Positions 82 to 37,498 are shown, counted from the first letter of the stretch. The stretch: 64,000 nt of DNA from Candidatus Cloacimonadota bacterium (GCA_018433885.1 JAHDQK010000042.1:31-64030); one strand, 5' to 3'. Numbers and translations: made by a program. Notes: generated from the sequence alone by a model not told the origin.

Positions 82-3000
82 TTATTGTCCATTTTTACGT
101 GCAATGGTCTTAGTATTGTTTCTGATTGTTATGTTTGATGAGTCGTTGTTTAAAAGAGTTAAACCAATCGCTGCTTGGTAGTGTGAGTAAATCGCATTAG
201 GATTATCGTTATTTTTGAAGGTGTTATTAATAATCTCGACGTTTGTAGCGTCGAGGCATGTTACACAACTGGTGTAACCTGCCTGTATCTGCTTGTTATT
301 ACTAAAAAAATTGTTCTTAATTGTATATCTCCCCTTACCTCTTACATGGATCGCAGAAGCACTACTCGCCATATTGTCATGAAATCGGGATGACTCAATG
401 ATAGAATGGTTTATCGGATTATTGGAAGATAAACATACAGCGCCTATAGAATCACTTCCAGTTCCAAGTTGATGTCCATAATTATCGTAGAAATCGCAAT
501 CAATAATGTGAATTGGAACGTAGGACTCTAAACCTGTCGGGAGTTTATCACTCCCTGGTATAATGTAACAATCGCCGCAGTTACGAATTGTACAGTGTTC
601 CATTGTAACATGGCCGATATTACCTGAAAGGTATACACCGCCCCCCCCCTCGTTATCGGTATCTTCAAAGATTATGTTCTTTATGGTAAGCTCGTCGAGG
701 ATATCACTGTATAAGTTCCATACTTTCAAAGCGTGTCCACGCTCATTCGAGTGTATCACGACATTCCCAATGCCTTCCAGAGTAAAGTTCTGGAAGTAAT
801 CACCCAGACCAAGTACCAATACTCGCTCACGATATGTACCCTGGTTAACTACGATGTGAGGGATATTCAAACTCATGGAAACGTCAAAGGCATTTGATAT
901 TGTATGACATACACCGGAAGACAGATCTTTATCAACAAACACAATCTGTTGTGGGGCAGTCAAGTCTATATATCCAATATCTGCATTACCTATGATATCT
1001 ATTACAGCGCTAACTACCTTTTCATAATATATCGCGTCGGCATGTTTGATCTCATAGGCACAAGTATTAACATAATAGTTATCAAATTGAAATGACCCTG
1101 ATGCGTTTGTGCTTAACTCAAATACATCTCCAGAGGACAAATTAGTAACGATTATGGGTTGATTAGCCAAGGGTTGATTATTGGAGCGTAAGACACCTGT
1201 AATGTGACCAACGATTCTCTCTTCGTTATTATCCGTTAAACTACTTCTGATCCATTGAGCACATTGGGGGCTCAATATTGTATGAGGACTTGCATCACTG
1301 GGAATAAAGTATTCATCAAATGGCGTTCGGATTTCTCCAGAGATAGCTGAACCATAGGGTGTGAACTGAGTTTGGGAAGGCTCCGCGAAGTCTCGATTAG
1401 TCATGCACAAACTGGATATAACAGGAATGATTGGCAGATCATAATTTACATTGAAATGAATCTTTAGCTTGTCAGAATTGATGATCCAACTAAGCACATC
1501 TTCCAAAACACTGTTATGCCAAGAGTCAGGAAATACCTTTTGTTTATAATGAAACTCGGTTGGAAAGTATGATGCGGGGCACTTGTCGTACCATTTACTA
1601 TGAATTTCGTCAAGAGTATAACTGCCTGGGAATCCTAGTATTTTCCACTTTATCCTTAAACTTGCAAAGTGACCGTTATCCTCAATATTACCAACAGGCT
1701 GGGCTGAGCCAAAAGCAACGGCATACTTCCTGATGTTGTTTTGCTTCCAGGGGAAGCCTGACTTGTAGTCAAGTTCTTCATTATATGAACCAGAATTGTA
1801 GTAATCCACATCTTGGTTAACGTGCATTACATTGCGCGCTTCGCATGGATTCAAAAAATCGAATACGTCTTTGTATTCATTGGACCCATCAAAGAAAGTG
1901 TAGGTTGTTGACTCGGCTGTTACATTGTTGCGTACTAGTTGTCGGGCTATGGGCGAGTCAATTAACACATCAAATGTTTCGAGTAAACTCTCTACTTGAT
2001 CTTCAATCCCAGGTTCATGATCAACAATAGTGTCAATAAAGTCGACAATATGATTTTGCACATTCTCGTTGATCACGAAACCTCGATGTGGTGAATCCAC
2101 AGTTAAGAGAAGATTGCTACCGTGGGCAAATGCACCTTGGTCCTCTGCGCTGGCAAGGGCGATTCTCGCCAATACCCCCCCCATGGAATAACCGATCACT
2201 TTAATAGGTTGACATCCGAAACCACCATATTCTCCAGCTTCATCATGCTTGTTCCTTATTTCGGTCAATGCAGATAGCACGAGGCCTGCATTCTCATATA
2301 GGCTTGTCTGGGATTTTTCAAATGTCAGGAAGTAGAGATCGAAGCCATTGTCCAACAGGCTCTTGTAAAAGACAGGATTTAATCCGACGATACTTGATAT
2401 ATTGTTTGAATTATGAAAGTTGAAACCTTCTACAATTAACACAGGTTTCTTCGTAGATCCACTCACATGACTCTGATAATGCGTCAGTTTACCAATGTGC
2501 TCTGTACTATTTGAGGCAACACTTACCGATTCAGTATATGGGAAAATCCCCAGATCGTATTGAATTTCATGTTCTGGTTCTTCAGTGTACGTGGTGCCTG
2601 ATGGGTAGTATGTCTTAATCGTAACGAGATAGTTACTCACAGTGGAAGCATATTGATGGCTTACATTATTTACTGCGGAGCTATTTACATAATGCGTACT
2701 GCTGGTATAATCACCCCATTGAATCACAATCTTATTATTCACTGGGTAGCCACCTAAAGCAATAGTTACTTTCGTAAAGTATGTTACCTGGACTTTCTCT
2801 GGAAACAAAGAAAAGTCGATTGTTGGTAGGTCGTAATCAGCAGCTATAATGGCAGTGTCATCAAATGCATATTGGTTACCATGTGTAGGATCTGGGTCCC
2901 TTAAAGTGACAAATTCTGGAATGTTGCTAAGTACGTTATCTCTGATCTCGGCGGCTGTAGCAAGCAGTATCTTACCTGACACTAGAACCAAAAATACAAG

Positions 3001-3096
3001 AACAATTCTGAAAAGAATGCTCCCGCTCCCAGTCTTTAGCGGGCTGCAATCATTGGTTGCCACCTTTGTAAGGGGGGCTTGATGCGTTTTGATCAT
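82..3096 (-). CDS. Large membrane-anchored or secreted multidomain protein: lipase/esterase-like alpha/beta-hydrolase domain, CarboxypepD_reg-like domain, C-terminal right-handed parallel beta-helix repeats
   Basis: 1004-aa ORF. It has an N-terminal hydrophobic anchor (ILFRIVLVFLVLVSGKILLATAA) and a GxSxG nucleophile elbow (VIGYSMGGVLARIALA). GHITGVLRSNNQPLANQPIIVTNLSSGDVFELSTNASGSFQF resembles a carboxypeptidase-regulatory-like fold. The C-terminal third has N/D-rich beta-helix-type repeats (IIFEDTDNEGGGGVYLSGN, RFHDNMASSASAIHV, IINNTFKNNDNPN). No T9SS tail is present. Confidence 0.6.
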   Translation of the reverse strand: MIKTHQAPLTKVATNDCSPLKTGSGSILFRIVLVFLVLVSGKILLATAAEIRDNVLSNIPEFVTLRDPDPTHGNQYAFDDTAIIAADYDLPTIDFSLFPEKVQVTYFTKVTIALGGYPVNNKIVIQWGDYTSSTHYVNSSAVNNVSHQYASTVSNYLVTIKTYYPSGTTYTEEPEHEIQYDLGIFPYTESVSVASNSTEHIGKLTHYQSHVSGSTKKPVLIVEGFNFHNSNNISSIVGLNPVFYKSLLDNGFDLYFLTFEKSQTSLYENAGLVLSALTEIRNKHDEAGEYGGFGCQPIKVIGYSMGGVLARIALASAEDQGAFAHGSNLLLTVDSPHRGFVINENVQNHIVDFIDTIVDHEPGIEDQVESLLETFDVLIDSPIARQLVRNNVTAESTTYTFFDGSNEYKDVFDFLNPCEARNVMHVNQDVDYYNSGSYNEELDYKSGFPWKQNNIRKYAVAFGSAQPVGNIEDNGHFASLRIKWKILGFPGSYTLDEIHSKWYDKCPASYFPTEFHYKQKVFPDSWHNSVLEDVLSWIINSDKLKIHFNVNYDLPIIPVISSLCMTNRDFAEPSQTQFTPYGSAISGEIRTPFDEYFIPSDASPHTILSPQCAQWIRSSLTDNNEERIVGHITGVLRSNNQPLANQPIIVTNLSSGDVFELSTNASGSFQFDNYYVNTCAYEIKHADAIYYEKVVSAVIDIIGNADIGYIDLTAPQQIVFVDKDLSSGVCHTISNAFDVSMSLNIPHIVVNQGTYRERVLVLGLGDYFQNFTLEGIGNVVIHSNERGHALKVWNLYSDILDELTIKNIIFEDTDNEGGGGVYLSGNIGHVTMEHCTIRNCGDCYIIPGSDKLPTGLESYVPIHIIDCDFYDNYGHQLGTGSDSIGAVCLSSNNPINHSIIESSRFHDNMASSASAIHVRGKGRYTIKNNFFSNNKQIQAGYTSCVTCLDATNVEIINNTFKNNDNPNAIYSHYQAAIGLTLLNNDSSNITIRNNTKTIARKNGQ

Positions 3097-6130: not shown

Positions 6131-7090
6131 ATGCGCAGGATTTGTTTGAGTTTAATCTTGGTCGCCAGTGTCTTTATCCTCTCGGCGCAAGGCTGGGAAA
6201 TGGATAACTTTTATTTTAACCCTTCAGGTATCCCCAGCATGCCCTTCGCACAGATACTCTTTAACGATATTGATAACGATGAAGATTACGATATCTGGCT
6301 GGGTAATAGCACCCGTCCGCCGATCTTCTTGGAAAACAACGGTAGTGCCACTAATCCATCTTATACATTGGGGTATGACTATCTGGAGATGATGCTTATT
6401 GATTATTCAGATATGGCGGTCTCGGTGGATTTGGATGGAGATGGGATCCTTGACCTAGTTACTGGGGGACCCTATGGGGTTTATTTCTGGAAATGCATAG
6501 ACCCGGATACCGGTACATATACCCTGCAATCGGGTATGTTCGAGGATGTAGTTACCGGGTACTACCCGATTCCTGACCTGGCGGATATCGACGGGGATGG
6601 AGATCTGGATGTGCTAAGCGGAACCCAGATGGGAAATATCAAGTATTTCCGGAACGAAGGTTCCATCTACCATCCCATTTGGCAAGAGGATAACTCTTTT
6701 TTCTCGGTAATAAACCAAACTGTTTTCTCTTCCGTGACTGCGGGAGAAATAAATGGAGACGGCTTGCCGGATGTGATAATCGGCGATCTTTCCGGGAACA
6801 TCTATTTATATCGGAACTTGGGGACATCTCTGCAACTGAGTCCTTTCTTCTTTACCGGCTTGAACTTTGGACCTTGGTCCTGCCCGCGATTGGTGGACAT
6901 GGACATGGATGGAGATCTTGATCTGGTAGTGGGCGGTGTAATTGGCACATTGGCGTATCTGGAAAATACTGGCGATGCGCTAAGCCCGAACTGGATCCTG
7001 GTGAATGGCTTTTTTGACGGGATAAATGTGGGTTATCATGCTTCACCAAGTTTTGCTGATCTGGATGAAGACGGTGATCTGGGATGGTAG
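6131..7090 (+). CDS. Secreted FG-GAP/VCBS repeat protein, apparently 3'-truncated
   Basis: The 319-aa ORF has a signal peptide (LSLILVASVFILSAQG). It has repeated Ca-binding-like FG-GAP motifs (DLDGDGILDLVTGG, DIDGDGDLDVLSG, EINGDGLPDVIIGD, DMDMDGDLDLVVGG) and ends abruptly at DLDEDGDLGW-stop. Confidence 0.75.
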   Translation: MRRICLSLILVASVFILSAQGWEMDNFYFNPSGIPSMPFAQILFNDIDNDEDYDIWLGNSTRPPIFLENNGSATNPSYTLGYDYLEMMLIDYSDMAVSVDLDGDGILDLVTGGPYGVYFWKCIDPDTGTYTLQSGMFEDVVTGYYPIPDLADIDGDGDLDVLSGTQMGNIKYFRNEGSIYHPIWQEDNSFFSVINQTVFSSVTAGEINGDGLPDVIIGDLSGNIYLYRNLGTSLQLSPFFFTGLNFGPWSCPRLVDMDMDGDLDLVVGGVIGTLAYLENTGDALSPNWILVNGFFDGINVGYHASPSFADLDEDGDLGW

Positions 7091-7206: not shown

Positions 7207-7232
7207 GGGCGGGGTAGCTCCCGCCCATTTTT
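7207..7232 (+). terminator. Rho-independent terminator after the stranded T9SS tail
   Basis: A GGGCGGG(G)-TAGC-(T)CCCGCCC hairpin is followed by ATTTTTA. Confidence 0.7.
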
Positions 7233-7317: not shown

Positions 7318-9177
7318 TCACTTGAGGTCTATTAGTTCGTAGATCTTTACCGCTTTGTTCTTGCCCTTCACTTTAACTTCGTCCAAGTAACGCACTTCCA
7401 CGTGGTCTTTCACCTGTTCCAGCGTAAACTCGCTGATGATGATGTGTTTTTCTGTAGTGAACTCTTTGTTTATGCTTTCCAGGCGCGCACCCAGGTTGAT
7501 GGTATCCCCGATGGCAGTGTAGTCGAAGATCTGCTCACTACCCAGATTTCCCACCACCGCCTGTCCTGTGTTTACTCCAATGCCGATCTCGAAGATCTCC
7601 TTGCCTTCCGCCTGCCATTTCTCCTGTAATTCCCTCATCTTTGCGCGCATCTCAAGCGCTACCTTACAGGCACTTAAGGCATGGTTTTCCAAAGGAACGG
7701 GAGTGCCAAACAGCGCCATGATCTCGTCTCCTACAAATTTATCCAAGATGCCGTTGTTTTCCACGATTATCGTCACCATCGCCGTGAGATATTCTTTTAG
7801 GATGTTCACGGTCTCCTGGGGGCTGTGGTTTTCGGAGTACGTGGTAAAAGAGCGGATATCCGAAAACAAGACCGATATTTCTTGCAATGAGCCGCCATAA
7901 CTCAGCTTTTTGGGGTTCTTCAGTAACTCGTTTACCAGTTCGGGTGCCATATACTGTTGAAATGCATGACGGATAAATCGCTTTTCTTTCAAAGAATCCA
8001 AATAGTGGCAGATCAGGCTTCCCACATATACCATCAGCAAAGCCAATGCCGTCTGCACGATGGGGATTATCAGGCTGTGGCTGCGGAAAAGATACAAGGC
8101 AAGGTAGTATTGCAGAGCGATCAGGACTATGGTACCGAGCGCGGTAAGCTGGGGCTTCAGTTTGGAGAAAACAAACCACAAGCCCAAAAGCAGTGCCAAT
8201 TCACAGATAAGATACAACCAGGGATCAAATCCGTATAGATAATCTCCCCGCATTACCATCTCGATGAAATTGGCGTGTATCTCTACTCCGGGAGTCCACT
8301 CTCCCCCAAACGGGGTGGGAAATTTATCGTGCAGTTCATCTATGGTTGCTCCGATCAGCACAATTTTATCCCGCAATACTCCGGATTCCACGATTTCGTA
8401 GAACTCGTCGAACTCGATCCCCTGATAACCAGGCATGGCGATGGTGCTATCGTCCAACACACTGGCATAGGATATCTGAGGAAAGGATCCCGCAGGACCG
8501 TAATAGTTTATCAAGGCTTTGTTTGCGCTATAGATGGGAACCTTGTGAGGTGCCACTGCCAAGTGCTGTCCCTCGATCCTGAGATGCGCATCCCAGTCCG
8601 GTTGATATACCCTGCTATTGGCAAGCGCGGCTACTCCGATGCTGAAATGAGCTTTATTGTCCATTTCCTCATAGAGGCTGTACTTGCGGATGGCGTTATC
8701 CACATCAGAATTCATGTTCACGATGCCCCAGGGGGTTTGCTTGCCCAATATCGGGGCTATGGGTGTAACAAGCTGGTCTGGATCCTGGTGAGTCTTGCCA
8801 TGCAGGACCTTCCCGGCAAAGATCACGTTTCCGTAACGTTCGGCAGTTTCCGCGAGAATCGAATCCGCTTGGGGATAGCGGGAGCTTTCGGTGAACTCCA
8901 CGTCAAACACGATGAGCCGGGCACCTGCCAAGCTGAGGTTCTCAATAAGTTTGGCGTGATATTCCCGGGGGAATGGCCAAGTGGTGTCCAACGCACTGAA
9001 GCTGGCGTCGTCGATAGCGATCACCACCACGTCTTCGCTGATGTCGCGGACTCCGCGTAGCCGGAAAAGGCTATCCTGAGCTTTGTATTCCAAAGAATCT
9101 ATTGAAGGAAACAGAAAGAGGATTTTAAGAAGAATCAGGATCAATATGGGAATAACGAATTGACGGATGCGGATCAC
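7318..9177 (-). CDS. CHASE2-domain membrane sensor fused to a class III adenylate/guanylate cyclase
   Basis: The 619-aa ORF starts at GTG. It has an N-terminal TM segment, CHASE2 signatures (VVVIAIDDASFSAL, TWPFPREYHAKLIENLSLAGARLIVFDVEF) and three TM helices. The cyclase core has all catalytic positions: LFSDIRSFT, FVGDEIMALFG, IGDTINLGARLE. Confidence 0.9.
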   Translation of the reverse strand: MIRIRQFVIPILILILLKILFLFPSIDSLEYKAQDSLFRLRGVRDISEDVVVIAIDDASFSALDTTWPFPREYHAKLIENLSLAGARLIVFDVEFTESSRYPQADSILAETAERYGNVIFAGKVLHGKTHQDPDQLVTPIAPILGKQTPWGIVNMNSDVDNAIRKYSLYEEMDNKAHFSIGVAALANSRVYQPDWDAHLRIEGQHLAVAPHKVPIYSANKALINYYGPAGSFPQISYASVLDDSTIAMPGYQGIEFDEFYEIVESGVLRDKIVLIGATIDELHDKFPTPFGGEWTPGVEIHANFIEMVMRGDYLYGFDPWLYLICELALLLGLWFVFSKLKPQLTALGTIVLIALQYYLALYLFRSHSLIIPIVQTALALLMVYVGSLICHYLDSLKEKRFIRHAFQQYMAPELVNELLKNPKKLSYGGSLQEISVLFSDIRSFTTYSENHSPQETVNILKEYLTAMVTIIVENNGILDKFVGDEIMALFGTPVPLENHALSACKVALEMRAKMRELQEKWQAEGKEIFEIGIGVNTGQAVVGNLGSEQIFDYTAIGDTINLGARLESINKEFTTEKHIIISEFTLEQVKDHVEVRYLDEVKVKGKNKAVKIYELIDLK

Positions 9178-9191
9178 AATAAACTCCTGTC

Positions 9192-9228
9192 AAAAAAGCC
9201 CGAAGCGTGGTTTTTCGCCACGCTCCGG
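9192..9228 (-). terminator. Rho-independent terminator between the OM-barrel gene and the CHASE2 cyclase gene
   Basis: The minus strand reads CCGGAGCGTGG-CGAAAAA-CCACGCTTCGG followed by GCTTTTTT. It lies 14 nt after the OMP stop. Confidence 0.7.
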
Positions 9229-9241
9229 AATGTACTTAGGT

Positions 9242-11653
9242 TTAGAACCTTTGGGTAAGGCTCAGTCTGAAGGTCGTGGCATCATAATCTAGGGCACTGT
9301 TAAGATCATTACTGTAGCTCTTGATCCCCATATCCGCGGCGACGGTCATATTGCGGATCGGGTAGCTTTCTAAACCTAGATTGAAGTAGTTGTATTTCTG
9401 AGGATCATTATCCCCAGACAGTTTGGTATTTCGATAGGAGATATAGGGTTTTATGCGATCCTGCCACAGCGAGTAATCAGCCTTCAAGAAAATGCTGCTG
9501 TTTTTGTACTCTTTGGTAGCCATTTCGTCCTTGTTTGTGCCGGTTGTATATGATATCTGGGTGCGGAGTGGTAGCATGGAATAGCGGTTGCTCATGGTAA
9601 AAGCTATCCCGTTATTTGTGTTATCCGAGAGTTTGCTATAGCTTGTTTCACCTGCGGGAAGGTGCTCACTTTCGCTTAAGCCCATCCGGTAACTGATATC
9701 CAATTGAGTGGGCACATAGGGGATCTGCACGATGTTGTAACCTATGCCGAAGCTCATATTTTGCGCATTACGTTGGTAAGGCGCAAAGCTGTCGTCGGCG
9801 ATCTCTTCGTTTGCCTTGTTTTCTCCGCTGTTGTCGTTGAACGATGCCTTCAGATATGGCATATTCGGAACACGAAGGATCATCTGGGCGAAGATAGTCT
9901 GGTAAGTATTAGTTTCGCTTTTATGCCCCATCAGGTTGTCTTCGGTAAAGTTCACCCCTCCGCTCAGGAAGAGTAATCTGCCGAAGTTGAACTGATCTGT
10001 GATCGATATCACTCTGGTATCATTCAACTGACCATTGATCCCCAGAGCATTAAAGGCACTGCCGGTTTCGTAGTACTGAGCACTAAGGAAGTTCTTCATG
10101 ATCAACATTCTTACGTAGGCAGTCCAAGCCAGATTTGCCCTGCCGGGCATAAAGGGCTCCATATTGCGATTGATCACGAAGAGATCAGCATGATCCGAGG
10201 GATCTATCGGCGAACCTCCGAGTTCCACATCGAGACCATATTCTTCAAGATCTTCGGCGGTCAGAGCACCGGGAATCGTATTGTTGTTCAGCATGCTGCC
10301 TGCGATCTCCGCACCCATTACAAAGTTCTGGCTGGGGATGTTGATCTGAGTATCAAAACTCAGCACTGCGTTATCCCGCGCCATCGAAGTATACACGTAA
10401 TCCAATGAATCGGCTTTGCTGCTTTCTCTTTCGTAGCGGTAATACTCTTCATCCAAAGAACTGATGATGTCACGATGACGAGAGCCGGTGATTCCGAAAC
10501 TGAAGCCGTCTTCCCTGCCAAACTGCACTCTTGCGCCAATGGCTTCCTGTTTGAAGGTTCCGCTGGCACGAGTTCCCAGAGTTGTATCTGCCTCGATCTG
10601 CGTCTTACGCATGGATTCCCCGTGCGCCCAAGTGAGAGAAAGGAATCTGGTATGGAACTTCCCGTAGAGTCCGCGAATGTTCTTTCCAGATAGAGTATAG
10701 GAGGAAAGATGGGGGGAGTAATCTCCCAGAAACAGGTCTAAAACAGGGACTTGCAAGCCGAAGGTAAAGCGGTTCACGGGCTGTTTGTTGCTATCTTCCA
10801 AGCTGGATACCAGAAGGTTGGTCTGCATATCCAGGATGCCGTAATTGGCATAAAGATCAGCCCAGGCGCTATAATCGTTTTCTGTATTGCCAAACGCTAA
10901 TTCTTCATCGGAAACACTGTAGATATTGCTGGCGAAGTTCACCGATCCGCGATATGTGAAGGGTAGTGCCGGTCCGCGGGTTCCGGGAGTGATTTGGGTG
11001 CTCCAGGTATCCGAATACACATCCGCACCCTTCACTTTTGCCGTTACCATTGCCTTGCGATCGCCTTCTTGGGGACGGTCTTCGCGATACATCAACACAG
11101 AGCCGCTGAACTCCGTACGCTTGGTTACATCTTTATCTCCCACCCAGACGCGAATGCTTTGGGGATCGATATCTTCTGCTAAAGCCAGGTAGCTGACCGC
11201 CAACACATATCCATCATCGGCGGAGATAGTTTCTTCATCGCTGAGAAGTACAAATCCTTGGTTCAGAGTACCCAAGGGAGCATTTAAACGTAATTTATAT
11301 AAGGGACTGAGTCCATCTTCTGCCGGCATATACTCGGAGCCGCCGGTACTTAGTACAAACTCGAAGCGATATTCCACATCGTTGGTGCTAACCGCCACTC
11401 GGGGGATGAATCCTTTCCAGTACAAAGAATTAGGATCATCCTGCCGCATTGCCTCGCTTTGCCAGACGCTCACGCCTGCCAGACGATATTGCAGGTTAAC
11501 CGAGGAGACAAGCTCCTGCCCCTGAACCATTTCCAGGAGCAATTCCACGTCTTTGCCAGGCACGAAGGTTTCGGGACTCACATGAATCGCACTTACGGCG
11601 AAGAGAGTGAACAGGGCGCAGGAAAAGATCAGGCTGAGGATCAAGCGTTTCAT
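9242..11653 (-). CDS. Large outer-membrane beta-barrel protein of unknown family with an N-terminal soluble (Ig-like?) region
   Basis: The ORF is taken from the internal ATG (MKRLILSLIFSCALFTLFAVSA signal peptide), which is preceded by AAGGAG. The C-terminal 550 aa or so show alternating amphipathic strands rich in Y/G/S/N. The terminal residues are ...LSLTQRF (aromatic C-terminus typical of OMPs). No family could be recognised by eye. Confidence 0.55.
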   Translation of the reverse strand: MKRLILSLIFSCALFTLFAVSAIHVSPETFVPGKDVELLLEMVQGQELVSSVNLQYRLAGVSVWQSEAMRQDDPNSLYWKGFIPRVAVSTNDVEYRFEFVLSTGGSEYMPAEDGLSPLYKLRLNAPLGTLNQGFVLLSDEETISADDGYVLAVSYLALAEDIDPQSIRVWVGDKDVTKRTEFSGSVLMYREDRPQEGDRKAMVTAKVKGADVYSDTWSTQITPGTRGPALPFTYRGSVNFASNIYSVSDEELAFGNTENDYSAWADLYANYGILDMQTNLLVSSLEDSNKQPVNRFTFGLQVPVLDLFLGDYSPHLSSYTLSGKNIRGLYGKFHTRFLSLTWAHGESMRKTQIEADTTLGTRASGTFKQEAIGARVQFGREDGFSFGITGSRHRDIISSLDEEYYRYERESSKADSLDYVYTSMARDNAVLSFDTQINIPSQNFVMGAEIAGSMLNNNTIPGALTAEDLEEYGLDVELGGSPIDPSDHADLFVINRNMEPFMPGRANLAWTAYVRMLIMKNFLSAQYYETGSAFNALGINGQLNDTRVISITDQFNFGRLLFLSGGVNFTEDNLMGHKSETNTYQTIFAQMILRVPNMPYLKASFNDNSGENKANEEIADDSFAPYQRNAQNMSFGIGYNIVQIPYVPTQLDISYRMGLSESEHLPAGETSYSKLSDNTNNGIAFTMSNRYSMLPLRTQISYTTGTNKDEMATKEYKNSSIFLKADYSLWQDRIKPYISYRNTKLSGDNDPQKYNYFNLGLESYPIRNMTVAADMGIKSYSNDLNSALDYDATTFRLSLTQRF

Positions 11654-11669
11654 ATCTGTTCTCCTTCTC

Positions 11670-12344
11670 TTAATAGGTAATATCAATGTATTTGAGTTTG
11701 CCATTGCTATCCAACATCGGGATGCGAATGTTATTGATCTCCTTCACGCGGGAGGATTCCAATTCTGCTTTTTCGATCTCACTGGTATCTTCGTAAGTAC
11801 TTTCACGAACTTCCACGACTCCATCCTGATTTACCGTGGCAGTACTGCCTTTGGGTACGCTTTTTACCTCGTCGGTTGCCAGCACCCGCACTTCCACTTC
11901 ACCATCTGTAACGATAAAGGTACTTAGCCCTTCATCACTTACTTTCGTGAGGAACTCGGTGCCTTTCACGGAAGCCACCGTGGTAGGGGTTTGCACCGTG
12001 AATGCTCCGGTTCCCTTCTTCACCTGAGTCAGGACACTGCCTTTGTTCACATTTACTCTTTTACTTAGGGAAGTACCTTCCTGGCTGGCATTGATCGTCA
12101 CCACGGAATTTGAGAACATCTTGATCATCGATGAAGCGTCCACATATTTATAAGCGGCGAAACTTTCGGGACCGGTACGCAATACGTCGCGGTTCATCAA
12201 GAGTTCGCCATTTTTGAATTTTACGGACTTTCGGGCGCGTTCCAGCTCCACCTTGCCTTTACTGGCGGAAAGCATCGCCACGCTATCTGCCAGAAGCAGG
12301 GTGCTTAGCACAAGGATCAGAGTTAATAGCATTATCTTTTTCAT
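11670..12344 (-). CDS. FecR-domain periplasmic protein
   Basis: The start is taken at MKKIMLLTLILVLSTLLLA (signal peptide, AAGGAG RBS). The FecR-like core is SASKGKVELERARKSVKFKNGELLMNRDVLRTGPESFAAYKYVDASSMIKMFSNSVVTI. Its stop lies 16 nt before the OMP start. Confidence 0.7.
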   Translation of the reverse strand: MKKIMLLTLILVLSTLLLADSVAMLSASKGKVELERARKSVKFKNGELLMNRDVLRTGPESFAAYKYVDASSMIKMFSNSVVTINASQEGTSLSKRVNVNKGSVLTQVKKGTGAFTVQTPTTVASVKGTEFLTKVSDEGLSTFIVTDGEVEVRVLATDEVKSVPKGSTATVNQDGVVEVRESTYEDTSEIEKAELESSRVKEINNIRIPMLDSNGKLKYIDITY

Positions 12345-12354
12345 TTCTGTCTCC

Positions 12355-13446
12355 TTATTCCATGATATCCACATGCAGTTCTTTACCTACCAAGTTTCCC
12401 AAGATGTTTACCGCATCCTGTCCCCAGTAGCTTTTGCCATTGAATATTACTTCGCCGGTGGGAGTATAACCTTGGCTGAAGATATTGGTAAGCATGCTGT
12501 TGCCCAGCATTTTGAGCAGGATCTGCACATCCTCCGGACTAGTTTCGCCTCCCTCATCCATCATATAGCGGAATACGAACCAATTGCTTTCCAGCTTGGG
12601 AGAATTTCCGGTGTTTCGACCTAAGTGGATGTTATCCTGATTATAGAGGTCGGAATAGACCATCCACGCATAATAGTAACCGTTGTTAAGTGGCAGATAC
12701 TGCGAGAATCCGCTCTCTTCGGGGCCGGAACTGTGATAGACTTCCACTCCGGTGCTCTTGACCGTGGAAAGCCGGGGAGGATTATTGGGAGGAAACTCCC
12801 GGATCACCAGCCGTTGATCGTTGAACCCGGTGTTTACTGCGTTCCAGAAGAAGCTTACCGGCAGATGCCCGATCACGGGAACCTGACGTCCGATCAAAGC
12901 TCCGGGTCCTGTGAGATATATCCCGCCGGCATTACGGATGCGAATGGTGAAGATACTTGGCTCCTGCCACGTGGTGGAACCATCCGGTCTCAGAGACACC
13001 TTCAATTGCAGGATGCCATCGGGAAAATAGCCGGATAGCACTGCATCCTTCAGAGTGGGGTATTTATCCACCATATCCGAGATATTGAAGTCAAGCTCTT
13101 CTTCCACGAAATAGTTGCTGGCATCGCTGGAAATTAAATCCCGATTAGTGAGGTTCAGAACCTGGTTGGGCGCCAGTGCCTGGGCTGTTCTAAACCGGGC
13201 TTTTCCTTCTTCTAGGATCTGGATGCCGTTCCAAGTAATCACCACCTGCATCTGTACAAATTGTTCCACATTGTCGTTTGTGAGGATCGCATTGGTTAAG
13301 ATGGGTTGGGTGGCGGAATTATAGGGGTCGAAGCTGAATGTGCTGATCTGGTTCACATCAATCCCCGAGGGGGTAAAAACCAAGGACAGTGCATTCAAGC
13401 TAAAACACATCAGTAGCAAAGAAATGAATAGAATTGTCGTTTTCAT
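12355..13446 (-). CDS. Secreted hypothetical protein (no recognisable domain)
   Basis: The 363-aa ORF has a signal peptide (MKTTILFISLLLMCFSLNA) and a GGAGG RBS. Its stop overlaps the RBS of the FecR-like gene. It starts 10 nt after the ddl stop. Confidence 0.6.
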   Translation of the reverse strand: MKTTILFISLLLMCFSLNALSLVFTPSGIDVNQISTFSFDPYNSATQPILTNAILTNDNVEQFVQMQVVITWNGIQILEEGKARFRTAQALAPNQVLNLTNRDLISSDASNYFVEEELDFNISDMVDKYPTLKDAVLSGYFPDGILQLKVSLRPDGSTTWQEPSIFTIRIRNAGGIYLTGPGALIGRQVPVIGHLPVSFFWNAVNTGFNDQRLVIREFPPNNPPRLSTVKSTGVEVYHSSGPEESGFSQYLPLNNGYYYAWMVYSDLYNQDNIHLGRNTGNSPKLESNWFVFRYMMDEGGETSPEDVQILLKMLGNSMLTNIFSQGYTPTGEVIFNGKSYWGQDAVNILGNLVGKELHVDIME

Positions 13447-13456
13447 TGTACCTCCA

Positions 13457-14395
13457 TTAGTTTGGCACAGAACTTCTTATTATGTTTTGCAGCAGGTCGC
13501 AAAAGCTGAGTCCCGCTGCCTTGGCTGCCATGGGAGTAAGGCTTAATGGCGTCATTCCCGGCAGGGTATTTACTTCCAAAAAGTATAGTCTATCTTCATT
13601 CAATCTAAAATCCACTCTGCCATACACAGTACATCCCAATGCCCAAAATGAACGTTCTGCGTAGAGTTGTACAAGTTGCGCGATGGATTCGTGAATCGGA
13701 GCCGGAGCCAGATACTCCGTCTTCCCTTTAGTGTATTTATTCTGATAATCATACCAACCGGCTTTGGGGCGAATCTCCACCACCGGCAAGGCTTTTCCAT
13801 CCAGAATGCTTACCGTAAGCTCCCTTCCGGGGATGTATTCTTCCAAGAGAACCGTATTGCAATAGCGGAAAGCATCGGCAACGGCGGGCTTAAGTTCTTC
13901 TAAAGTATGCACCAGATGTATGCCCACGGAGCTACCGGCATCGTTTGGCTTTACGATGAGAGGCAAGCCCAAGCTTTCTGTGAAAGCTGCGTAATCCCTG
14001 CTATCGCGATAATCTTCCAGAAGGTTTGCTCGCAGCAGGATGTGTTTTGCCACAGGCACTCCTTCTTGTTCAACGATTAACTTGCTGATATATTTATCCA
14101 TCGCCAGCGCGGAAGCTTTGGCATTGCTGCCGGTAAAGGGCACGCCAGCAAGTTGCAGAGCCGCTTGAAGTTCACCGTTTTCTCCGCTACCCCCATGCAG
14201 CCCATTGAAGACAAGGGCGGGATCTTCTGCCCGGATGGCTTCCAGCAAATCGGCTAATTGAGGGTAATCCTGAGGATCCAGTTCCCGCACGATAAAACCA
14301 AGCGTATTTAGAGCTCCGGCGATCTCGGTGCCGCTCACCAAAGATATCTCCCGCTCGGGAGAATTCCCCCCTTTTAGGACAACGATCGTTTTCAT
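13457..14395 (-). CDS. ddl: D-alanine--D-alanine ligase
   Basis: The 312-aa ORF has ATP-grasp Ddl signatures (GGNSPEREISLVSG, FNGLHGGSGENGELQA, LPLIVKPNDAGSSVG, GRVDFRL, LEVNTLPGMT). Confidence 0.9.
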   Translation of the reverse strand: MKTIVVLKGGNSPEREISLVSGTEIAGALNTLGFIVRELDPQDYPQLADLLEAIRAEDPALVFNGLHGGSGENGELQAALQLAGVPFTGSNAKASALAMDKYISKLIVEQEGVPVAKHILLRANLLEDYRDSRDYAAFTESLGLPLIVKPNDAGSSVGIHLVHTLEELKPAVADAFRYCNTVLLEEYIPGRELTVSILDGKALPVVEIRPKAGWYDYQNKYTKGKTEYLAPAPIHESIAQLVQLYAERSFWALGCTVYGRVDFRLNEDRLYFLEVNTLPGMTPLSLTPMAAKAAGLSFCDLLQNIIRSSVPN

Positions 14396-14404
14396 TTACC
14401 TCTC

Positions 14405-15319
14405 TTAAAGTCTAATCTGATAAAAATGCTTGAGTTCCAAGCCCAGTGCCGCTTTGAAGCGGGCTACTTCCTGGACGTTTGCACCACAATAATCAAATAT
14501 CTCGCTTCCTGCGGGCAGACATTTCAGCAGACTCAGGCTATGAAACGTAGCCGCGCCTTTCTTCAATGCGTCTTCCGCGGTCGCCTGAAACAAAGTATAA
14601 GCTACCCTTCCACCGTCGTGAAGTAGAATATTGGAGCTCACTCGCCGGTCTTCCCATACAACGTTGAATTGTTTCAACAATCCGACTGAGAAAAGTTTTT
14701 CCAGAAAACTTTGCAAGGCAGAATAGCTGACTCCCAATTTGTGGTTTTTACGCTGATCAAGGTCGCTCTGAAGCCGGATGAAGACTTCGGAATCGAAGCG
14801 CTCTTCCAAGACCATCCCCAGTTTTTGGGCTGTGCGAAGTTTCTTGCGTTCATCTGCCAAGGGTTGAATCTCGTCCACCACACGCATCCGGAAGGTATAG
14901 AGCGGCGCGGTTTTAAAACCGTTCCAGGTAAAGCTCCGAACATCCTCGTTATCCGGGTTCAAGCGCAGATGCAGCCTGCGATAGCGTCCTGCCAGAAAGC
15001 GGGCAGTCTCTGCGCAAACTGCGCAGGTATCCAGCAACTTGCGGGCTGGATGCACATTATCTTCGTAAGCGAAAGAGAAGCCCTGATAATATGCCCCCAC
15101 AGGCGCAACAATGCCCTTGATCCCCATTTTACTTCGCTCATACAGCGGCAGGATGGAAAATAGCTCTTCGCCCTTAAATACTTGCAATTGCAAGGGGTTT
15201 ACGTTGTGTAGGGTAGCGATCGCTTCCATGAACGCAGGGTTGTGCCAAAATCCATATTGCGCACCTATCCTGTGCGCCTGCCCCTCCCGCACGTCAATAA
15301 GTTTCAGTGAATAAGTCAT
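14405..15319 (-). CDS. FemAB-like / GNAT (BioF2-like) acyltransferase family protein (tentative)
   Basis: The 304-aa ORF has overall architecture and motifs that resemble Acetyltransf_6/FemAB-like proteins. It sits between a receiver gene (4-nt overlap) and ddl (9-nt gap). The assignment is by recollection of the family only. Confidence 0.4.
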   Translation of the reverse strand: MTYSLKLIDVREGQAHRIGAQYGFWHNPAFMEAIATLHNVNPLQLQVFKGEELFSILPLYERSKMGIKGIVAPVGAYYQGFSFAYEDNVHPARKLLDTCAVCAETARFLAGRYRRLHLRLNPDNEDVRSFTWNGFKTAPLYTFRMRVVDEIQPLADERKKLRTAQKLGMVLEERFDSEVFIRLQSDLDQRKNHKLGVSYSALQSFLEKLFSVGLLKQFNVVWEDRRVSSNILLHDGGRVAYTLFQATAEDALKKGAATFHSLSLLKCLPAGSEIFDYCGANVQEVARFKAALGLELKHFYQIRL

Positions 15320-15678
15320 GGTGCTAATTTTTGCTTTATCGCAGCAGTTAACTCGCTTAATTGAAATGGTTTGATGATGTAGTCCGAGGCTCCTTCCACC
15401 ATGGCTTTATAGGCGCTGTCGATGGTGGGATAGCCTGTCATGATCAAACAAAAGATCTCGGAATCCTGCTCCATTATTTTCTGCATAAGTTCCAAGCCGT
15501 TCATTCCCGGCATTACCAGATCTATCAAAGCGAGGCTATAGATTCCCGGCCGAAATAGCTTCAACGCGGCATCGGCATCCTCTGCGCTATCAACGGTATA
15601 ACCATTTAGCTGCAGGCTTTCGCCAATAACCTCTCTCAGCAACCGGTCGTCGTCCACAAGAAGAATCCTGGCTTGCAT
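15316..15678 (-). CDS. Stand-alone response-regulator receiver (CheY-like)
   Basis: The 120-aa ORF has ILLVDDDRLL, the phosphoacceptor context LALIDLVMPGMNG, LIMTGY and IIKPF. There is no output domain. Confidence 0.9.
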   Translation of the reverse strand: MQARILLVDDDRLLREVIGESLQLNGYTVDSAEDADAALKLFRPGIYSLALIDLVMPGMNGLELMQKIMEQDSEIFCLIMTGYPTIDSAYKAMVEGASDYIIKPFQLSELTAAIKQKLAP

Positions 15679-22997: not shown

Positions 22998-24335
22998 ATG
23001 CAGAAAAAAATCTTTGTATTGGATACGAACGTATTGATTCACAATCCCCGAGCGCTGTTTGCCTTCGAAGACAATCGGGTAGTGATCCCCATCGTGGTAA
23101 TAGAAGAAATCGATCAGTTCAAGAAGGGTCTGGATGAAAAAAGCCGTAATGCCAGACAAATCGGACGTTATCTGGACGACCTGAGAAAAAGTGGGAAGCT
23201 TCAGGAAGGAGTTCCCACCGATCAGGGAGGAGTAATCCAAGTAACAGTGAACCGGGAAGTTGCCGACGCCGCATCCAAGCTGATCTTCATGGATCGCAAC
23301 GACAACCTGATAATCGGTACTGCGCTATATTTTCAGGAAAAGTATCCCAAATCCCAGGTAATCTTGGTTTCCAAGGACGTAAACGTACGTATAAAAGCAG
23401 ACACAGTGGGCATTCACGCGGAGAACTTTGAGAACGATACCATAAACTTTGATGAATTCTATACCGGCTGGACTCACGAGGAGCTGGCGATTGACCTATT
23501 GGACAAACTTAAAAGTAGCCAGTATATAAACAATCCTTTCGAAAACCTGTATCCCAACCAATTTGTGAGGATTACGTCCCAGGGCGATCCGGAAAACATC
23601 CAAACCCTGCGCTTTAACAAGGATCATAACAAGCTTTATAAACTCAGCCATTATCAGGGACAGGATGTTTTCGGAATCACTGCCAGAAATTTCGAGCAGG
23701 AAATGGCACTGGATCTTTTGCTGGATGACGATATCAAACTGGTAAGCCTCTCTGGAAAAGCCGGTACCGGGAAGACACTCTTGGCTATCGCAGCCGGATT
23801 GAGCAAGGTAGTGGATGAAGAACGCTATACCCGCTTGGTCGTTTCACGTCCAATCTCCCCATTGGGCAAAGACTTAGGCTATCTTCCAGGGAATAAAGCA
23901 GAGAAGTTTAACCCATGGATGCAACCAATCTACGACAATATGGATATCCTGCTATCTCTCCACGACGAAAAAAACGATAACCCCAGAAACAAAAAGAAAG
24001 CTTCGATCGAGGACTATATGGACTATGGCTTCTTGGAGTTGGAACCACTCACCTACATTCGCGGCCGCAGTTTGCCAGACCAGTACATCATCATAGATGA
24101 AGCTCAGAACCTTAGCCCCCACGAGATGAAAACCATCATCACCAGAGCCGGAAAAAACACCAAGATCGTGTTGACCGGAGATCCCTACCAGATCGATATC
24201 CCCTATCTGGATGCGATCAGCAACGGGCTTTCGGTAGCGGTGGAAAAACTGAAAGGAGAGACCATGGTGGGGCACATGACGCTTGAAAAAGGCGAACGCT
24301 CGGCACTGGCTGATCTCGCTGCCCGCTATTTCTGA
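22998..24335 (+). CDS. PIN-domain plus PhoH-like ATPase (YlaK family)
   Basis: The 445-aa ORF has an N-terminal PIN (FVLDTNVLIHNP...VVIPIVVIEEID). It has a Walker A (LSGKAGTGKTLLA) and a Walker B-like motif (YIIIDEAQNL). Confidence 0.85.
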   Translation: MQKKIFVLDTNVLIHNPRALFAFEDNRVVIPIVVIEEIDQFKKGLDEKSRNARQIGRYLDDLRKSGKLQEGVPTDQGGVIQVTVNREVADAASKLIFMDRNDNLIIGTALYFQEKYPKSQVILVSKDVNVRIKADTVGIHAENFENDTINFDEFYTGWTHEELAIDLLDKLKSSQYINNPFENLYPNQFVRITSQGDPENIQTLRFNKDHNKLYKLSHYQGQDVFGITARNFEQEMALDLLLDDDIKLVSLSGKAGTGKTLLAIAAGLSKVVDEERYTRLVVSRPISPLGKDLGYLPGNKAEKFNPWMQPIYDNMDILLSLHDEKNDNPRNKKKASIEDYMDYGFLELEPLTYIRGRSLPDQYIIIDEAQNLSPHEMKTIITRAGKNTKIVLTGDPYQIDIPYLDAISNGLSVAVEKLKGETMVGHMTLEKGERSALADLAARYF

Positions 24336-26221
24336 TGCAACACACTATACATGAACGAAGTTGGGTCGAAATCGACCTGGCAGCCTTTCGCCAAAACCTG
24401 GTGTTCTTAAAGAGTTTTTTACAGCCCGGACAGGATTTCCTACAGATTGTAAAAGCTGATGCTTATGGCCACGGAGCCAAAGAGATAGCCGAAGCGGCTC
24501 TGGCGGAAGGAGCGGTGTATCTGGGGGTGGCAAACTCCGAGGAAGGTAAGCTACTGAGGATACAAGGCATCGATGCGAGGATCTTGATCCTGTCTCCCAG
24601 TTTGCCGGAAGAGATCGATGAAATCATCAAATACGATCTTGATCCAGCAGTTTCGGACATTGTTTTTGCAAAAACTCTGGCAGAAAGCGCCCGGATCGCT
24701 GAAACCGACGTGCGCATTCACCTCAAGATCGATACCGGAATGCATCGGAGCGGTATCCGTCTGGAAGATGCTCTGAACCTGTATCATGAGGTTTCTGGCT
24801 TGCGCAACCTGGTGGTAGAAGGAGTATTCAGCCATTTTAGCTCCGCGGAGAGCGATTCCATTTTCAGCTCCTTGCAGGAGGAGCAATTTGTTGCCTTGAT
24901 CGCTAAACTGCCTGAGAAACCACGCTATATACATCTCTCCAACAGTGCTGGAACTATTGGGGGATTTGGAAAGATCTGCAATCTTGCCAGATTTGGTATT
25001 TTCAGTTTCGGGGTGGATACCATTGGTGGATATTCCGCTCGCCTTGCTCCGGTGATGAGCTTCAAATCTACATTAAGCCAGGTAAAAACCGTTTTGGCAG
25101 GAGAAAGCGTAGGTTACAATCGGGACTGGCGTGCCCCTAAAGATGGAAAGTATGGCATCCTCCCCATCGGTTATGCTGATGGCTACGATTTCCTGCTTTC
25201 AAACAAAGGCAAAGTGCTGGTACAAAACAATATCTGCCAAGTTATCGGCAGGGTGTCCATGGATATGATTACCATCGATCTCAGTGAAGTGCCCAATGCC
25301 AGAGTAGGAGACATCGTAACGCTCCTGGGAGCAAATGAACCTGAACTGAGAGCAGAGGCCTTGGCAGGGATCTATCAAGGATCCGCTTACGAGCTTTTGT
25401 GCCAGGTTGGACGGCGGGCAAGACGCTATTATAAGAGCCGGGATCATATCCTGCACAGTGCTCCAATCGCTCGGCGGGATTTCATCGCAGCAGATTTTGG
25501 TAATAGCAAATTGAACCAGATCATTAGCAGCGCTCTGGCAAAGAGGCTGGAGAGTGCCGAGATCGGGGATTTGATCTACAAAGAGATTCTGAGAAGCTTC
25601 TTCTTCAATAAAGACCGCGATGTTCACTATCGCCGTTCATTTGCTCATGAGATCAGCTTCAGCACTATGAATAACGCAGCATTTTATCAGGCAAAAACTC
25701 GCCTCAGTTATCTCAAGATATTGGGAAACAATTATTTCGTAGTTGCATGCGCTACTTCCGACGAGAGCCTGAGACGCTACTTTATGCGAACTGATGTGGA
25801 ATACCGTTGGCTTCTGGACGCTGCTCTGGATCCGGGATCCGAACACTTCAAGGTGGATTCGGTGAGGATAAACGGATTTGAGCTGTTTACGCAGATGAAC
25901 CTAAGCGAAGACTCTCTGGAAATCCGTTGCTCACATCCAAAGTTGGACGCTCTGATTGGTACGGAGGTAGAGTTTGAGATATCTACCACCACACTTTACC
26001 CCAAGAACAGCCACCAGCTTTCCGTCTTTATCAGCGAGCTTACTCAGGGTGTGCAAATAACCTTCGGATTCCCCGAAGAGCTGAGCCGTGTGGAGCCGGT
26101 CAGAATATTCTCCGGGCAGGAGAAAAACCCGCCTATCATCCGCGAAGAGAACCGCATCACCCTGAAAACCGAAGCTTCGGAATGGGTGTTTCCCCTCTCG
26201 GGGGTCGTCTTTACTTACTAG
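24335..26221 (+). CDS. alr: Alanine racemase fused to an uncharacterised C-terminal domain of about 260 aa
   Basis: Residues 1 to about 367 are a complete Alr (PLP-lysine context VKADAYGHG, GESVGYNRDW, ends GRRARRYY). Residues from about 370 to 628 have no motif I recognise. The start overlaps the PhoH-like stop (ATGA-type overlap). Confidence 0.85.
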   Translation: MQHTIHERSWVEIDLAAFRQNLVFLKSFLQPGQDFLQIVKADAYGHGAKEIAEAALAEGAVYLGVANSEEGKLLRIQGIDARILILSPSLPEEIDEIIKYDLDPAVSDIVFAKTLAESARIAETDVRIHLKIDTGMHRSGIRLEDALNLYHEVSGLRNLVVEGVFSHFSSAESDSIFSSLQEEQFVALIAKLPEKPRYIHLSNSAGTIGGFGKICNLARFGIFSFGVDTIGGYSARLAPVMSFKSTLSQVKTVLAGESVGYNRDWRAPKDGKYGILPIGYADGYDFLLSNKGKVLVQNNICQVIGRVSMDMITIDLSEVPNARVGDIVTLLGANEPELRAEALAGIYQGSAYELLCQVGRRARRYYKSRDHILHSAPIARRDFIAADFGNSKLNQIISSALAKRLESAEIGDLIYKEILRSFFFNKDRDVHYRRSFAHEISFSTMNNAAFYQAKTRLSYLKILGNNYFVVACATSDESLRRYFMRTDVEYRWLLDAALDPGSEHFKVDSVRINGFELFTQMNLSEDSLEIRCSHPKLDALIGTEVEFEISTTTLYPKNSHQLSVFISELTQGVQITFGFPEELSRVEPVRIFSGQEKNPPIIREENRITLKTEASEWVFPLSGVVFTY

Positions 26222-37446: not shown

Positions 37447-37498
37447 CGATTTTCACGTTCGAAAATGCTAAACAATCCGGTAATGAGAGGTGTGGATC

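Follow-up and report, generated by a model that had tools for sequence, protein, structure and literature searches.

A split FecR, outer-membrane barrel and CHASE2 cyclase cassette conserved in Cloacimonadota and other FCB-group bacteria

CHASE2 domains are among the commonest extracytoplasmic sensor domains of bacteria, and we know of no ligand or activation mechanism established for them. The only system known to us with functional data on CHASE2 is NsrA–CyaK of S. meliloti, in which a fusion protein of 1219 amino acids (aa) is hard to dissect. Here, a four-gene cassette is described from a 64,000-nucleotide (nt) stretch of DNA of Candidatus Cloacimonadota bacterium (GCA_018433885.1, JAHDQK010000042.1:31-64030; the window, with positions counted from its first letter). 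Within positions 7318-13446, an exported protein with tandem immunoglobulin (Ig)-like domains (unk363), a FecR-domain protein and a large outer-membrane beta-barrel protein are encoded ahead of a CHASE2-domain cyclase, all four genes being co-oriented on the minus strand.

In S. meliloti, ribosomal protein uL2 acts as an external protein signal that raises cyclic AMP (cAMP) via CyaK, for which NsrA is genetically required (PMC7529298, PMC13001267), and aa 600-1200 of NsrA have been described as a barrel (PMC7529298). The architecture of NsrA was rebuilt from the DNA of the pSymB record; the protein carries a FecR domain at aa 85-179 and tetratricopeptide repeats (TPR) at about aa 400-606, followed by the C-terminal region. 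The stop codon of nsrA overlaps the start of cyaK, which encodes a CHASE2 domain and a Guanylate_cyc domain. A gene for a PycTM (Pycsar effector-like) protein adjoins nsrA on pSymB (L070:3543-4151). On a Methylocystis plasmid, the gene for an NsrA-like FecR-TPR protein of 1221 aa likewise overlaps a CHASE2 cyclase gene, and on a Paracoccus plasmid separate TPR and FecR proteins are encoded before the CHASE2 cyclase; alongside the latter genes lies that of a patatin-like phospholipase with a cyclic nucleotide-binding domain (L137:215-2041, pAMI5). An Azospirillum plasmid encodes a barrel of the ShlB/FhaC type (TpsB) directly downstream of its CHASE2 cyclase. Among published clusters, one from Campylobacterota comprises a CHASE2 cyclase, a phosphodiesterase, a FecR-domain protein of the outer membrane and a TPR-containing protein, for which a single pathway and horizontal transfer have been proposed (PMC9239204). 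The 'BiofilmReg' operon of Burkholderia and P. aeruginosa encodes a LysM-FecR protein with a CHASE2 histidine kinase and a response regulator (PMC5192318). In addition, the FecR-domain protein SMc02177 of S. meliloti is a reported target of the cAMP-dependent regulator Clr (PMC5498481). The pairing of FecR and CHASE2, often with an outer-membrane barrel, is a recurrent and mechanistically unsolved theme.

As in NsrA–CyaK, the cassette of the window encodes a FecR domain along with a large beta-barrel of the outer membrane, directly upstream of, and coupled to, the gene of a CHASE2 cyclase; the two cyclases are homologous (~28% identity, E 1e-59) and the FecR domains can be aligned (22% identity, E 2e-9). 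Unlike NsrA, in which FecR domain, TPR and barrel form one polypeptide, the cassette has its FecR domain and barrel in separate genes, lacks TPR repeats and includes an extra, invariant tandem-Ig protein. Its barrel is of a different, unannotated family with Ig-like N-terminal domains, and the cassette resides in uncultured anaerobes from the FCB group, as opposed to rhizobia. The Campylobacterota cluster, set apart here by its published description only, includes a phosphodiesterase as well as a TPR protein, neither of which occurs in the cassette, and is apparently fused in the manner of NsrA; the cassette carries instead the tandem-Ig protein and a different barrel. With the BiofilmReg operon, the cassette has in common a periplasmic FecR-domain protein encoded next to a CHASE2 sensor, but that operon differs in its histidine kinase output, in the LysM domain of its FecR protein and in having no outer-membrane barrel. 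The cassette is therefore not categorically new, NsrA–CyaK and the published FecR/CHASE2 clusters being its precedents; it is a distinct variant, widely conserved, in which the parts are split and two of them come from protein families without annotation. A sequence-only reading of the window had proposed an uncharacterized relay running from the outer membrane through periplasm and inner membrane to a second messenger; the co-occurrence described below supports that relay, which is less unprecedented than had been claimed.

For analysis of gene neighbourhoods, three sets of loci were used: 68 from species-representative Cloacimonadota of GTDB, 59 from metagenomes (the KSB1-centred branch of the barrel family) and 8 reached from individual proteins. 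Family profiles were built from these loci. Counts cover L001-L134; L135 and L136 were added later and kept apart. A cross-phylum alignment of 52 barrel sequences was too diverse for the locus scan, and a narrower KSB1-centred alignment was used. Directly after the barrel gene, and on the same strand, a CHASE2 cyclase gene was found in 107 of 113 assessable loci (Cloacimonadota 56/59, others 51/54). A FecR gene lay upstream of the barrel in all 125 assessable loci (66/66 and 59/59, respectively), and the unk363 family was represented upstream in 118 of 120 (66/66 and 52/54). This order of unk363, FecR, barrel and CHASE2 cyclase persists with barrel identity down to 26-30%, and precomputed Pfam labels give the succession unknown, FecR, barrel, CHASE2 plus Guanylate_cyc at L072 (KSB1), L135 (Marinimicrobia) and two unlabelled contigs (L071 and L075). 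In Calditrichia, all three proteins of the trio are homologous to those of the window: the barrel at 22% identity, the FecR protein at 24% over its full length, and unk391, the counterpart of unk363, by full-length match to the unk363 profile (hhalign probability 96.7%).

Flanking genes vary, falling into at least 18 context classes by flank clustering, a rough count in that single-linkage clustering over-merges loci through common domain families. As the four genes stay together while their flanks change, their linkage is not explained by inherited synteny. The trio of unk363, FecR protein and barrel is an obligate unit, and its linkage to a CHASE2 cyclase, at ~95%, is far beyond chance, a strongly positive outcome of the gene-neighbourhood check proposed with the sequence-only reading. 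That the four genes are functionally linked is, in our judgement, very probable.

The three envelope genes are tightly packed in the window (Table 1). The ribosome-binding site (RBS) of the FecR gene, a GGAG box, overlaps the stop codon of unk363, as read in TAAGGAGACAGAAATG, and the ATG of the barrel gene lies 16 nt past the FecR stop, with GAGAAGGAG just ahead. Two longer versions produced by mechanical open reading frame (ORF) calling were rejected, namely a start of the FecR gene at 12374 (234 aa; 12344 is preferred) and an 820-aa form of the barrel, both being upstream extensions without an RBS. The FecR and barrel genes are separate and translationally coupled; ORFs, RBS and hydropathy thus agree with the three tightly coupled exported proteins that had been read from sequence.

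Between the barrel and cyclase genes, 64 nt apart, a terminator had also been proposed, and a hairpin with a 12-bp stem containing 8 G-C pairs was found at 9229-9199, followed by the T-run tail CTTTTTTGAC. Only ~14 nt separate hairpin and T-run from the cyclase start, with the RBS inside them; this leaves no space for a promoter, so that the cyclase transcript must read through the hairpin. Of 56 Cloacimonadota loci, 48 had a hairpin of -12 kcal/mol or lower no further than 90 nt from the barrel stop, as against 15 of 56 shuffled controls; the threshold is reached by 27% of shuffled Cloacimonadota sequences, and the enrichment is real but not absolute. A T-rich tail follows the hairpin in 24 of the Cloacimonadota loci, and stem sequences vary among species. 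No enrichment was seen in other phyla (28/51 loci versus 30/51 shuffled), where the genes are nearly contiguous and the barrel-to-cyclase gap is typically 12-15 nt. In Cloacimonadota, the hairpin probably acts as an attenuator of cyclase expression and would thereby keep the abundant envelope subunits well in excess of the cyclase.

For the barrel protein, an AlphaFold2 model was obtained with a mean pLDDT of 86.4 and a pTM of 0.61, in which the giant outer-membrane barrel suspected from sequence appears as 26 antiparallel strands. The chain ends in QRF, and a C-terminal Phe, typical for outer-membrane proteins, is found in 104 of ~125 homologues. The strand count being even, both barrel termini should be periplasmic, and the Ig-like N-terminal domains are hence predicted to face the periplasm. 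Pfam and NCBIfam scans gave no family match, with no plug, STN, TonB_dep_Rec or usher domain in the Pfam scan, and neither these scans nor the fold search placed the barrel in any porin, TonB-dependent, usher or polysaccharide-export family. Its closest fold in the PDB was MtrB (6r2q_B; TMq 0.41, TMt 0.49), a TM-score at which the likeness may come from barrel size alone; TonB-dependent receptors and FimD/PapC ushers, generic large barrels, followed at lower TM-scores. In the Mtr complex of Shewanella, MtrB forms a sheath of 26 strands, and the modelled barrel likewise has 26 strands and no plug. Unlike the porin-cytochrome complex MtrCAB, in which the sheath is partnered with multihaem cytochromes, the cassette has no haem-binding CXXCH motif in any of its proteins, nor any sequence similarity to that system.

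By exhaustive profile search, the barrel family comprises 2097 representative clusters with a cutoff of E <= 1e-3, of which 458 reach E <= 1e-30. Its named members, all of the FCB group, belong to Cloacimonadota, Calditrichia, candidate division KSB1 and Marinimicrobia/Neomarinimicrobiota. This wider family was exposed only by the exhaustive search; word-indexed searches with the barrel, unk363 and the FecR protein gave nearly Cloacimonadota alone, with one Calditrichia match in the case of the barrel. The first Ig-like domain of the barrel protein (profile ~21-122) was also met as 18-19 tandem repeats in two giant proteins, P0206 (3051 aa) and P0249 (4022 aa), and these tandem copies mark it as a mobile, adhesin-type module.

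The AlphaFold2 model of unk363 (pLDDT 80.5) consists of two tandem beta-sandwiches resembling Ig and fibronectin type III (FN3) domains and a small C-terminal alpha/beta domain. By hydropathy and motif check, the protein has a single N-terminal hydrophobic segment without a lipobox, one Cys and no CXXCH. As had been stated for both it and the barrel, no recognizable family emerged: Pfam and NCBIfam scans were without match, and profile comparison of the unk363 and barrel families gave an alignment limited to their signal peptides. Matches in the PDB were to generic Ig/FN3 folds only, PapD/FimC weakly among them, and no function is assignable from these. A chaperone-usher system was considered and rejected, as no Pfam match was found (PF00577 and others, PapD-like chaperone) and the usher and PapD fold matches are generic and of low TM-score. 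With neither the barrel nor unk363 assigned to an unrelated pathway by Pfam, NCBIfam or fold searches, the interpretation proposed from sequence kept its footing.

In the FecR-domain protein, the sole hydrophobic segment is signal-like (aa 1-28) with no lipobox after it, and Cys is absent. No cytoplasmic anti-sigma N-terminal domain and no transmembrane anchor were found by ORF, Pfam or hydropathy analysis, and the protein is predicted to be soluble and periplasmic. Its C-terminal motif takes the form IRIPVLDxxGxxKYIEIxY in Cloacimonadota and IEIEFxDxxGxxKxLxIxY elsewhere, and 68 of the 125 homologues end in an aromatic residue (Y, F or W); the motif resembles a docking beta-hairpin and may serve as one. 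In other phyla, PF24045 (DUF7354/MtxA_N) matches certain FecR partners and not the FecR protein of the window; a literature search on MtxA together with FecR found nothing. On a Marinimicrobia contig (L136:86-1684), the FecR-domain protein ahead of the barrel has 532 aa, no separate unk363-like gene was called and no CHASE2 gene follows; this protein may represent the first two proteins of the cassette fused in one chain.

The cyclase has one N-terminal and three later hydrophobic segments, which bracket the CHASE2 domain and thereby predict a periplasmic CHASE2 and a cytoplasmic cyclase domain. Pfam and this predicted topology agree with the class III cyclase and periplasmic sensor of the sequence-only reading. 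The nearest solved cyclase domains by alignment are those of Synechocystis Cya2 (2w01) and P. aeruginosa CyaB (3r5g). Residues D440, K480, D484, T554, N561 and R565 are all present, each being kept in 96-99 of 99 cassette cyclases. By their roles in class III cyclases, D440 and D484 bind metal, K480 and T554 together specify ATP in subclass IIIb, and N561 and R565 serve the transition state. With all six catalytic residues intact, the protein should, judged from its sequence, be an active adenylate cyclase of class IIIb. A second cyclase-like signalling protein is encoded in the window (52168-55713, minus strand), a STAND-type protein of 1181 aa with AAA_16, TPR repeats and a weak, partial match to PF00211 (E 5e-6).

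From conservation, topology and analogy, it appears probable, with some reserve, that the barrel complex acts as sensor of a cue from outside or from the envelope, and that the FecR protein relays it to CHASE2, modulating the adenylate cyclase. The 803-aa barrel would sit in the outer membrane, its surface loops outward and its Ig-like domains hanging into the periplasm; the 224-aa FecR-domain protein would be the periplasmic adaptor and the 363-aa tandem-Ig protein a third exported subunit, whereas the inner-membrane protein would present its CHASE2 domain to the periplasm and carry the class IIIb adenylate cyclase on the cytoplasmic side. An extracellular or envelope cue would alter the state of the barrel complex, and the FecR-domain protein would pass this change to CHASE2, possibly via the conserved C-terminal beta-hairpin. 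The change would then cross the three-helix transmembrane bundle and switch the dimeric cyclase on or off, with cAMP as output. NsrA has been genetically shown to perform such a relay for CyaK, CyaD1 and CyaD2 in S. meliloti (PMC7529298, PMC13001267). For the cassette, we infer the physical contacts, the outside-in direction, the ligand and the role of unk363.

Several observations weigh against this relay. Comparison of the cassette barrel profile with NsrA gave an hhalign probability of 0.1, although a profile was here set against a single sequence, a comparison insensitive for barrels, and distant homology is possible; without detectable barrel homology, the analogy to NsrA is architectural and not orthologous. 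MtrB, to which the barrel is structurally closest, works as a conduit that sheathes proteins and not as a receptor. Among the genes of the window scanned, a few short ORFs lying outside the scan, no CRP or cyclic nucleotide-binding gene was found. At 6 of the 113 loci the trio has no CHASE2 gene next to it, two of them from Calditrichia (L001, L074), one an unlabelled metagenome contig (L073) and the others L033, L058 and L061, and the same holds for L136 and the P0100 contig; the trio can thus exist without a linked cyclase. As NsrA also serves unlinked cyclases, such loci are compatible with signalling. The metagenome loci, finally, are a biased sample, drawn with one peptide pattern and not de-replicated, most of them without a taxonomic label.

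The strongest alternative is that the trio forms an outer-membrane machine whose main job is not sensory, such as an MtrB-like sheath that would hold the FecR-domain and tandem-Ig proteins across the membrane, or an usher-like or surface-display device; the cyclase would only monitor or co-regulate it, for example according to assembly state or envelope stress, and would receive no external signal by way of it. This would fit the fold match to a 26-strand sheath, the usher matches of the barrel and the weak PapD/FimC matches of unk363, as well as the trios of Calditrichia and certain other loci that come without a linked cyclase; the order of a surface protein, a periplasmic protein and a barrel also parallels mtrC-mtrA-mtrB, the three-gene order of the Mtr operon. 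The TM-scores are modest, though, and reflect barrel size; CXXCH is absent and Cys almost so from the cassette proteins, and the usher reading lacks a plug or chaperone match in Pfam, the unk363 matches being generic Ig folds. Linkage to a cyclase of fixed type at 95% of loci points to dedicated signalling; FecR domains are known to relay signals, and a direct precedent exists in NsrA. On balance, we regard a non-sensory machine as rather unlikely.

More doubtful still is a mechanical version of the signalling relay, an MtrCAB-like assembly across the outer membrane in which the FecR protein would be threaded into the barrel or docked under it and touch a surface-exposed tandem-Ig receptor, coupling surface binding mechanically, along an unbroken chain of proteins, to the inner-membrane CHASE2 cyclase. 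If true, this would be an envelope-spanning signalling machine independent of TonB and sigma factors, and the 'ligand' of CHASE2 would be a partner protein, the FecR domain, and not a small molecule.

Adjacency of trio and cyclase by inherited synteny, with no functional link, is very improbable. In its favour, the whole block from the upstream response regulator gene through unk304 and Ddl to the trio and cyclase is syntenic in Cloacimonadota, Ddl being a housekeeping gene, and in the window a terminator divides the cyclase from the trio. The four genes nevertheless occur together under wholly different flanks in KSB1, Marinimicrobia and many metagenome contigs, the short gaps outside Cloacimonadota indicate co-transcription, the hairpin leaves the cyclase no promoter space of its own, and FecR and CHASE2 are linked independently in Proteobacteria (see also PMC9239204, PMC5192318).

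Classical signalling by a TonB-dependent transducer, a FecR anti-sigma factor and an extracytoplasmic function (ECF) sigma factor, which would share with the cassette a FecR-family periplasmic domain paired with a large outer-membrane barrel, TonB-dependent receptors among the barrel's fold matches and an outside-in relay logic, can be dismissed, as the cassette, unlike FecA-FecR-FecI, has a FecR protein consisting of signal peptide and periplasmic domain with no anti-sigma domain or transmembrane anchor, a 26-strand barrel with Ig-like domains and no Plug, TonB_dep_Rec or STN match, a nucleotide cyclase as output and, by Pfam, no sigma70_r2/r4 gene in it or its neighbours, in line with the lack of an ECF sigma factor or TonB-dependent receiver remarked on from sequence.

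Table 1. Features of the cassette and its upstream neighbours in the window
Feature	Position (nt)	Strand	Residues (aa)	Basis or remark
unk363 gene	13446-12355	minus	363	exported; cassette gene 1
FecR-domain protein gene	12344-11670	minus	224	ATG at 12344, RBS-supported
FecR domain PF04773	11892-12188		53-151	Pfam E 4e-11
C-terminal beta-hairpin motif IxIPxLDxxGxxKYIxIxY, FecR-domain protein	11673-11729		206-224	conserved across lineages
Barrel gene	11653-9242	minus	803	ATG at 11653
Signal peptide, barrel protein			N-terminal	single hydrophobic segment, no lipobox after (hydropathy)
Two Ig-like beta-sandwiches, barrel protein	10979-11596		~20-225	AlphaFold2 model
26-strand antiparallel plug-less beta-barrel	9245-10960		232-803	AlphaFold2 model
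Intrinsic-terminator-like hairpin + T-run	9229-9191	minus		between barrel gene and cyclase gene
CHASE2 cyclase gene	9177-7318	minus	619	GTG start at 9177, AGGAG box ahead
CHASE2 domain PF05226	8185-9135		15-331	Pfam E 2e-52, 178.8 bits vs cutoff 26.3
Guanylate_cyc domain PF00211	7339-7890		430-613	Pfam E 2e-26
Cyclase hydrophobic segments			1-31, then three within ~319-400	hydropathy
REC-only response regulator gene	15316-15678	minus		upstream of cassette; ORF + Pfam
unk304 gene	14405-15319	minus	304	no Pfam match
D-Ala-D-Ala ligase (Ddl) gene	13457-14395	minus		ORF + Pfam

Upstream of the cassette, the genes of the response regulator, unk304 and Ddl are tightly packed with one another and with the cassette, with one 4-nt overlap and gaps of ~9-10 nt, and genes from the response regulator to the cyclase lie no more than ~10 nt apart, the barrel-to-cyclase gap excepted. 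The best sigma70-like site of the region was located at 15745-15718, just upstream of the response regulator gene. This upstream block is syntenic across Cloacimonadota and absent at KSB1, Marinimicrobia, Calditrichia and other loci; it possibly belongs to the same operon as the cassette, outside the core. The most economical reading is that of a single long operon, with the seven genes from response regulator to cyclase on one strand and the hairpin serving as a leaky terminator or as a 3'-stabilizing element. Ddl is a cell-wall gene, and its place beside a FecR/CHASE2 module brings to mind the LysM-FecR protein that partners CHASE2 kinases in Burkholderia.

A gene for a PorX-like response regulator with REC and PglZ domains comes after the cassette at some loci of KSB1-like bacteria and Marinimicrobia (L071:9622-11193, L072:9182-10750, L076:14625-16232 and L135:8521-10095), and behind it stand genes for TsaE, a TsaD-family protein (PF00814), a GNAT acetyltransferase and AccD. 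The REC-PglZ regulator was considered as a fifth component and rejected, since apart from L135 it was found at no more than 3 of the 33 metagenome loci that could be assessed; this rarity makes lineage synteny the probable explanation.

On the other side of the cassette, an exported FG-GAP/VCBS-repeat protein is encoded on the plus strand (6131-7090), convergent with the cyclase gene, and between the two genes lies a perfect G+C-rich palindrome (GGGCGGG...CCCGCCC, 7207-7226) that has a terminator score on both strands. Elsewhere in the window, an ORF of 1004 aa had no Pfam match at E <= 1e-5 (82-3096, minus), an alanine racemase of 628 aa in total bears an unexplained C-terminal extension of ~260 aa (24335-26221, plus), and a dCache-HAMP-SpoIIE (PP2C) sensor phosphatase is encoded at 26218-28167 (minus). 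A protein of 991 aa (37490-40465, plus) combines a receiver-like domain with a PPDK_N domain, of the phosphoenolpyruvate-utilizing type.

The cassette splits a logic like that of NsrA–CyaK into small, separate subunits and offers a tractable route to CHASE2 activation, its conservation in more than 100 species-level genomes from at least four FCB-group phyla giving deep alignments for co-evolution analysis and multimer modelling. Its output is in every case an adenylate cyclase of one kind with an intact catalytic site. Two sizeable unannotated families are defined by it, one being that of the 26-strand barrel with Ig-like N-terminal domains (~2100 representative clusters), the other that of the tandem-Ig protein. 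Taken with the cases from Proteobacteria, it lends support to a generalization open to test, namely that FecR domains are the natural periplasmic partners of CHASE2 domains. Cloacimonadota, KSB1 and Marinimicrobia are abundant uncultured anaerobes of digesters and sediments, in which signalling is, to our knowledge, essentially unstudied; the cassette points to cAMP signalling in all three.

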